In this document: one piece after another, positions 48,129 through 48,834 of the stretch | Layout: every line of letters starts with the position of its first letter | Position numbering within the stretch: the stretch's first letter is position 1 | Assembly (NCBI RefSeq): GCF_965641715.1 | Contig: NZ_OZ282453.1 | DNA from: Escherichia coli | Lineage (GTDB): Bacteria; Pseudomonadota; Gammaproteobacteria; Enterobacterales; Enterobacteriaceae | DNA length: 64,000 nucleotides | Strand: one strand, 5' to 3' | Made by a program: the position numbers and the translations under genes | The notes under the pieces: generated by a model | The model's input: the letters and a program-made list of their open reading frames with translations, nothing else | Database searches by the model: none | What the model was told of the DNA's origin: nothing

Positions 48129-48834
48129 CAGGCATTCCTCTTCTGGCGCTCAAGCCATATTTTCTTCGCCATAAAAATCACCACGGTCAGGGCAAACAGA
48201 ATAAACAGTCCGGTGACAAACCAGAAGGTACCGCCTGTTAACATGCTGCCCGCCCAGGAATAAACAATAGTCGCCGGTAACTGACCAAGCCCGGTGGCGA
48301 TAAAAAACGAGCGAAAACGTATTGAAGTCAAACCGGCAGCATAGCTGATTGGATCGAAAGGGACAAAAGGCAATAACCGACAGACCAGGATAGTGTGTTT
48401 GCCGTAGCGAGTGAAAAAGCCGTCCATACTGTCAAGTACGGTTTTGCCGGTTAATTTTTCCACCACTTCGCGGCCCATCACTCTGGCGATAAAAAAGCAC
48501 AGCGCGCGCCGGCCATCGAACTGGTCCACGACAGCAAGCCGCCCCAGAGCGCGCCAAACAGCGACGCATTGGCAAAGGTGATCAAAAACGCAGGTAGCGG
48601 TGCAGCAATGGCCTGTAAAATCATCAACAAGAACGAGACAACTGCCGCCAGTGCGCCGTAAGACTGAATAAAGCGTTCTATACCCTGTTGGTCCACGGCG
48701 GCAAACGCCGCAACGCTGCGATTGATAAACTCATGGACGCCGGGAAGCAGCGCCCATGCCAGCAGCATAGCGAACAACAGGATGATGAGGGTTATACGGT
48801 AGTACCAGATTTTTCGCGATTGCATCTTCATCAT
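48128..48834 (-). pseudogene. ydjZ: DedA/TVP38-family membrane protein gene split by a frameshift
   Basis: Two overlapping reverse-strand ORFs in different frames (48478-48834 and 48128-48529) together cover one DedA-like protein; the frame switch maps to the GC-dinucleotide run at about 48501-48510. Confidence 0.65.

Follow-up and report, generated by a model that had tools for sequence, protein, structure and literature searches.

In the assembly GCF_965641715.1 of Escherichia coli, the gene ydjZ is spread over two reading frames instead of one, and the question arises whether it has been inactivated by mutation, whether it switches reversibly between two states, or whether it appears broken owing to an error in the sequence. 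We have analyzed this locus within a stretch of 64,000 nucleotides from contig NZ_OZ282453.1 (hereafter: the window). The window represents core chromosome of E. coli, extending from dmlA to chbC, and is colinear with complete genomes, the best of which are only 98.9–99.3% identical to it. A sequence-only reading of the window had noticed the split of ydjZ and had named a genuine pseudogene, a phase-variable site and a sequencing error as the possible explanations. Our analysis points to the first of these: we estimate at roughly 0.85 the probability that ydjZ is a pseudogene owing to a genuine deletion of 1 bp that is confined to a single E. coli lineage.

Identity and layout of the ydjZ locus

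The locus comprises the following features:

48128..48834, minus strand: disrupted ydjZ locus, orthologue of K-12 b1752; 707 nt, as against 708 nt in intact relatives
48478..48834, minus strand: first frame of ydjZ, 118 aa; native M1-A110, followed by eight aberrant codons (RCAFLSPE) and TGA at 48478-48480
48128..48505, minus strand: second frame of ydjZ; native codons 111-235 (ALCFF...QKRNA plus the stop), including most of the VTT/DedA domain

The two overlapping minus-strand ORFs of 118 and 133 aa, in different frames, have exactly the coordinates at which they had been described. The 118-aa ORF (48478..48834) ends with SSMAGARCAFLSPE followed by the stop, while the 133-aa ORF (48128..48529) includes ALCFFIARVMGRE. 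Native residues 1–110 are encoded in frame one and residues 111–235 in frame two, and together the two frames account for all 235 residues of the protein.

In K-12 MG1655 and other E. coli, ydjZ is one ORF of 235 codons. A 761-nt region around the locus matches an annotated ydjZ in 5,423 of the 5,426 complete RefSeq E. coli genomes, the top matches being 99.6% identical and longer by one base; the DNA of ydjZ itself can be aligned to the annotated ydjZ of E. coli GF3-3 with 99.6% identity and one gap. The order of genes is that of K-12 (xthA-ydjX-ydjY-ydjZ-ynjA-ynjB-ynjC), and ydjX, ydjY, ynjA, ynjB, ynjC and ynjD are all of full length and without stops, in agreement with the earlier statement that the rest of the operon is intact. 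From orthology and from the position within ydjXYZ-ynjABCD, the locus can be assigned to YdjZ (DedA superfamily, TVP38/TMEM64, COG0398). The same identification had been proposed from the letters of the sequence, and orthology, synteny and the match to PF09335 agree with it. Since the window contains no uninterrupted ydjZ ORF of ~235 codons, we classify the locus as a disrupted orthologue, i.e. a pseudogene.

We also observed that the similarity to GF3-3 varies along this part of the window. The ydjZ segment (48100-48860) is 99.6% identical to that strain, whereas the surrounding 10.7 kb (43128-53834) is only 98.4% identical to it, a contrast suggestive of the recombinational mosaicism that is usual for core genes of E. 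coli.

One base is missing at codons 110/111

The lesion was defined by alignment of the window with GF3-3, strain 48 and K-12 MG1655, each of which shows one missing base. On the gene strand, one G is absent from a GG doublet, by which GGCCGGCGCGGCGCTG becomes GGCCGGCGCGCGCTG; the local sequence is GGCCGGCGC[G]GCGCTG, where the bracketed G is the one that the window lacks. The codons ATG GCC GGC GCG GCG CTG TGC are changed to ATG GCC GGC GCG CGC TGT GC. On the plus strand the lesion lies at 48505/48506, where relatives have cagcgcCgcgccggcc and the window has cagcgcgcgccggcc:

48502..48509, plus strand: deletion site; gcgcgcgc, as against gcgcCgcgc in relatives, with one C gone at the 48505/48506 junction

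The deletion is thus seen directly in the alignments to three genomes, which agree with the earlier proposal that the loss of 1 bp splits ydjZ at this position. That proposal would have had to be abandoned if the reference gene were organized in the same two frames; the reference ydjZ, when aligned, has a single 235-aa frame. Because the lesion is one discrete change in the sequence, there is no need to ask whether a pattern came about by chance.

Mutation or artefact

With 71 nt centred on the lesion as the query, no complete genome was found at an identity of at least 99%. The best match, 98.6%, corresponds to exactly one gap, from which it follows that the deletion allele is present in none of the ~5,400 complete RefSeq E. 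coli genomes matched by this query. An exact 46-nt pattern with the deletion had no match among the GTDB species representatives either. The exact 118-aa product was found on five public contigs of different lengths, from NCBI and Logan, and an NCBI contig of 5.16 Mb is listed with it in the public collection; in the exact-protein index, which also covers JGI and ENA metagenomes, it occurs on NCBI/Logan contigs only. The Logan assemblies of two runs are 100% identical to the window, ERR15204800 (a 99-kb contig) over 20,357 bp and ERR15204927 (a 19-kb contig) over 14,306 bp. As these runs have neighbouring accession numbers, they probably belong to one project, and they may represent the same strain; what they demonstrate is technical reproducibility and not necessarily biological independence. 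A search with the repaired 235-aa protein yielded ten loci with an intact protein, 96.8–99.1% identical to the window, among which there is no close intact relative, the best one reaching 99.1% over 10.7 kb.

The sequence that surrounds the lesion is clean. All 36 other genes at 25.9–63.8 kb are of full length, without stops or gaps, and when 32.4 kb was aligned to strain 48, just one further indel appeared, in an intergenic T run between topB and ynjI (38717; T7 in the window, T8 in strain 48). The T7 form of the window is common to 110 complete E. coli genomes, with an exact match, and is therefore a natural polymorphism. No private indel was found in the same 32.4 kb at the 87 CCWGG sites, the 62 RCCGGY sites or the 130 homopolymers of at least 5 bases.

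An artefact of sequencing or assembly would mean that ydjZ is intact in this strain and that a GC-rich, repeat-like stretch beside GCCGGC was read with one G too few. This explanation is kept alive mainly because of nearby indel alleles that look like systematic long-read error. The protein cluster of the 118-aa product also contains other truncated forms of YdjZ, and two further ydjZ lesions lie at most 10 bp from the deletion of the window: the loss of C in GGCCGG (P0011/P0012; L004-L019), found in dozens of contigs with several B2 backgrounds, and an insertion of TA that results in GGTACC (P0005; L020-L021). The same 15-bp GC-rich stretch holds other 1-bp and 2-bp indel alleles in error-prone public assemblies, and it can be a systematic error site. 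Many of the contigs with the C deletion also lack single bases in A5-A6/T5-T6 runs and at CCWGG and RCCGGY sites, which resembles systematic long-read error, and three contigs of this kind show no substitutions over the aligned stretch relative to Nissle 1917, whose complete genome has an intact ydjZ. However, the error-prone contigs carry about one indel per 1–3 kb, whereas the lineage of the window is free of such noise, with no other private indel in 32 kb and 36 other genes intact. Moreover, the allele of the window is repeated in the Logan assemblies of two runs, with 100% identity over 14–20 kb, and on five contigs. Given a reproduced allele and clean surroundings, we consider the sequencing-error option of the sequence-only reading unlikely and favour its alternative of a genuine pseudogene.

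The C deletion itself is absent from complete genomes (0/5,395) and the contigs that carry it are error-laden; we therefore rejected this allele as a biological hotspot and regard it as mostly sequencing error. Where the C deletion and the TA insertion occur, long reads most likely contain systematic errors, and it is worth alerting annotators to this site. That the 15-bp stretch GGCCGGCGCGGCGC is a true recurrent indel hotspot, in which three frameshift alleles at most 10 bp apart arose in different backgrounds and which serves as a crude on/off or leaky-expression site for the operon, appears very unlikely to us. If it were true, such alleles might repeatedly silence a putative lipid scramblase of the DedA family, and its partial recovery might follow from another change of 2 bp or from -1 slippage on the adjacent U UUU UUA. 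In practice, the GC-rich stretch of ydjZ gathers indel calls in error-prone assemblies, and frameshifts reported there need to be checked with accurate reads.

Origin of the deletion and the question of phase variation

The ancestral sequence at the lesion is GCGC-G-GCGC, i.e. (GC)2 on each side of the GG doublet (GCGCGGCGC in intact alleles), and it can also be read as two tandem copies of GGCGC. The (GC)4 run GCGCGCGC is found only after the deletion, as the product of losing a G from GG, and the deletion also creates a perfect 8-bp palindrome. The base loss had been ascribed to a slippage-prone run of GC dinucleotides, an explanation that finds no support: the unit of such slippage is 2 bp while the change is 1 bp, and the ancestor has no such run. 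The event can be envisaged as a 1-bp deletion in which the GG doublet that separates the two GCGC tetramers, at codons 110/111 (GCG GCG), lost a G, presumably through simple misalignment at this run of 2 nt, whose surroundings are very GC-rich and repeat-like. There is a methodological lesson in this: the repeat that was taken for the cause is the scar of the deletion.

The same run invites the idea of a contingency site, at which the GC tract would reversibly alter its length and switch ydjZ on and off. The mutant allele does have 8 bp of alternating G and C, frameshift alleles of other kinds are located at most 10 bp away, and as a matter of arithmetic only, a further loss of 2 bp from (GC)4 would bring the frame back with one codon fewer. 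However, such a tract is missing from the ancestral ON allele, which reads just GCGC-G-GCGC, and a change of 1 bp cannot be made up of 2-bp units. Known contingency loci have tract lengths far above four repeat units. The window has (GC)4 runs at three further places (36717, 38021 and 47922), all inside the coding spans of topB and ynjA, which are of full length and without stops. None of 5,400 complete genomes has the deletion, and none of 5,395 has the neighbouring C deletion. The window and the two Logan contigs are identical, although these lineage mates were retrieved by an exact match to the mutant product, so that an intact sibling would be missed. The phase-variable option of the sequence-only reading thus finds no support, and we give it a next to negligible probability.

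Consequences for the VTT/DedA domain and possible residual expression

In an intact relative, the VTT/DedA domain (PF09335) is detected at residues 81–197 with 87.2 bits, and the break at residue 110/111 falls within it. In the window, the C-terminal frame of ydjZ matches PF09335 with 68.1 bits (cut-off: the Pfam gathering score of 33.9 bits), while the N-terminal 118-aa product alone has no Pfam match. Ribosomes are expected to read eight wrong codons and then TGA, which would give the 118-aa product. This product keeps the N-terminal helices and approximately the first 30 positions of VTT/DedA, the remainder being out of frame. According to the published topology of the DedA core (PMC10127716), the out-of-frame FVPFDPISY region would correspond to the second re-entrant helix. 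It is likely that the function of YdjZ has been lost. Among the DedA proteins of E. coli, YdjZ represents the COG0398 subfamily, whose members have been proposed to act as phospholipid scramblases and not as undecaprenyl-phosphate flippases (PMC10127716). The functions of the eight E. coli DedA paralogues overlap (PMC7818093), and because of this overlap, which includes the neighbouring ydjX, loss of ydjZ would be expected to be tolerated. An effect on the downstream genes is also conceivable from the following arrangement:

47580..48128, minus strand: intact ynjA, whose ATG shares one base with the stop of ydjZ

Given the overlap of the ydjZ stop with the ynjA start, and with termination occurring early, ~350 nt upstream, expression of ynjABCD may fall.

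Two sequence elements downstream of the deletion could in principle permit some expression of the native C-terminal part:

48490..48496, minus strand: T6 run, U UUU UUA in the shifted frame, in register, 8 nt after the deletion (read from the sequence)
48476..48481, minus strand: GTGATG; the TGA at 48478-48480 overlaps the native-frame GTG at 48479-48481 and ATG at 48476-48478

A -1 slip on the T6 run would lead back to the native frame at the cost of just three or four altered residues. The GTGATG is a possible re-initiation point for a C-terminal fragment of 115–116 aa, and gene callers placed a 116-aa ORF there on the Logan contigs. ydjZ could then still be expressed, either by a -1 slip on U UUU UUA or by re-initiation at UGAUG that gives two polypeptides reassembling in the membrane, and it speaks for such residual expression that the heptamer T TTT TTA (48490-48496) is in the correct register and that an in-frame ATG and an in-frame GTG, where a second ORF is called, share bases with the premature TGA. 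Nevertheless, both motifs are present in every intact ydjZ and have therefore not evolved for rescue; the fold downstream of the heptamer is unremarkable (z = -1.46), with no stimulatory structure; and no Shine-Dalgarno-like sequence is found upstream of the heptamer or at the proper distance from the ATG. A product in two pieces would moreover lack native residues 111 to ~119-120, which are within the domain. The two-frame organization is not conserved as in programmed frameshifting of the dnaX/prfB type, all orthologues examined being single-frame. The T6 run looks fortuitous and is no sign of recoding, and we consider it extremely unlikely that ydjZ is still expressed by either route.

Other features of the window

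A second inactivated gene of the window is yeaR, into which an IS421 element (IS4-like) is inserted at 2468-3827:

2528..3646, plus strand: IS421 transposase ORF, 372 aa
2468-2478 and 3817-3827: IS421 target-site duplication of 11 bp, GGGGTTTACCC
inside 2466-2501 and 3795-3830: IS421 terminal inverted repeats

The same insertion of IS421 in yeaR is annotated in E. coli strain 100416 (NZ_CM128593.1). We also compared pncA, which has 213 codons in the window (31132-31770) and 48 codons (144 bp) fewer in strain 48 (L003 6173-6670); the deletion belongs to strain 48. A Shigella origin, suspected from the identity of only 98.9–99.3% to the best complete E. coli genomes, was rejected: with an order of genes that follows the E. 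coli core and with just one IS, the window shows no sign of decay in the style of Shigella.

Significance and comparison with known systems

Taken as a genuine 1-bp deletion, the break in ydjZ most likely reflects the real inactivation of a gene in one strain, ordinary in kind, and not a switch or a new mechanism; the outcome is a frameshift pseudogene of a known, redundant gene. It provides mildly useful natural evidence that ydjZ, one of eight partly redundant genes of the DedA family, is dispensable. As regards annotation, ydjZ should here be recorded as a pseudogene and not as two genes.

The locus resembles several known systems to different degrees. With the simple sequence repeat contingency loci of Haemophilus, Neisseria and Campylobacter it shares a frameshift beside a short repetitive tract in coding sequence, but its functional allele has no tract, there is no length polymorphism in 5,400 genomes, the mutant tract has only 4 units, and the change is not a multiple of the unit. 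As regards frameshift sites of the dnaX/prfB type, U UUU UUA is in register, but no exceptional structure was found downstream and no Shine-Dalgarno-like stimulator is visible. It is like ydjZ of K-12 (b1752, UniProt P76221; a DedA/TVP38-TMEM64 inner-membrane protein, COG0398) in its locus and in the synteny xthA-ydjX-ydjY-ydjZ-ynjABCD, and differs from it in that the window lacks one G at codons 110/111 and has a predicted product of 118 aa with an aberrant tail of 8 residues. There is also a parallel with the ordinary strain-specific frameshift pseudogenes of E. coli, in which, like in ydjZ here, an indel of a single base affects a dispensable gene backed by paralogues, in one lineage and with intact flanks. 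Nothing substantive sets ydjZ apart from these, its site being a 2-nt run in a GC-rich, repeat-like context and not a long homopolymer.
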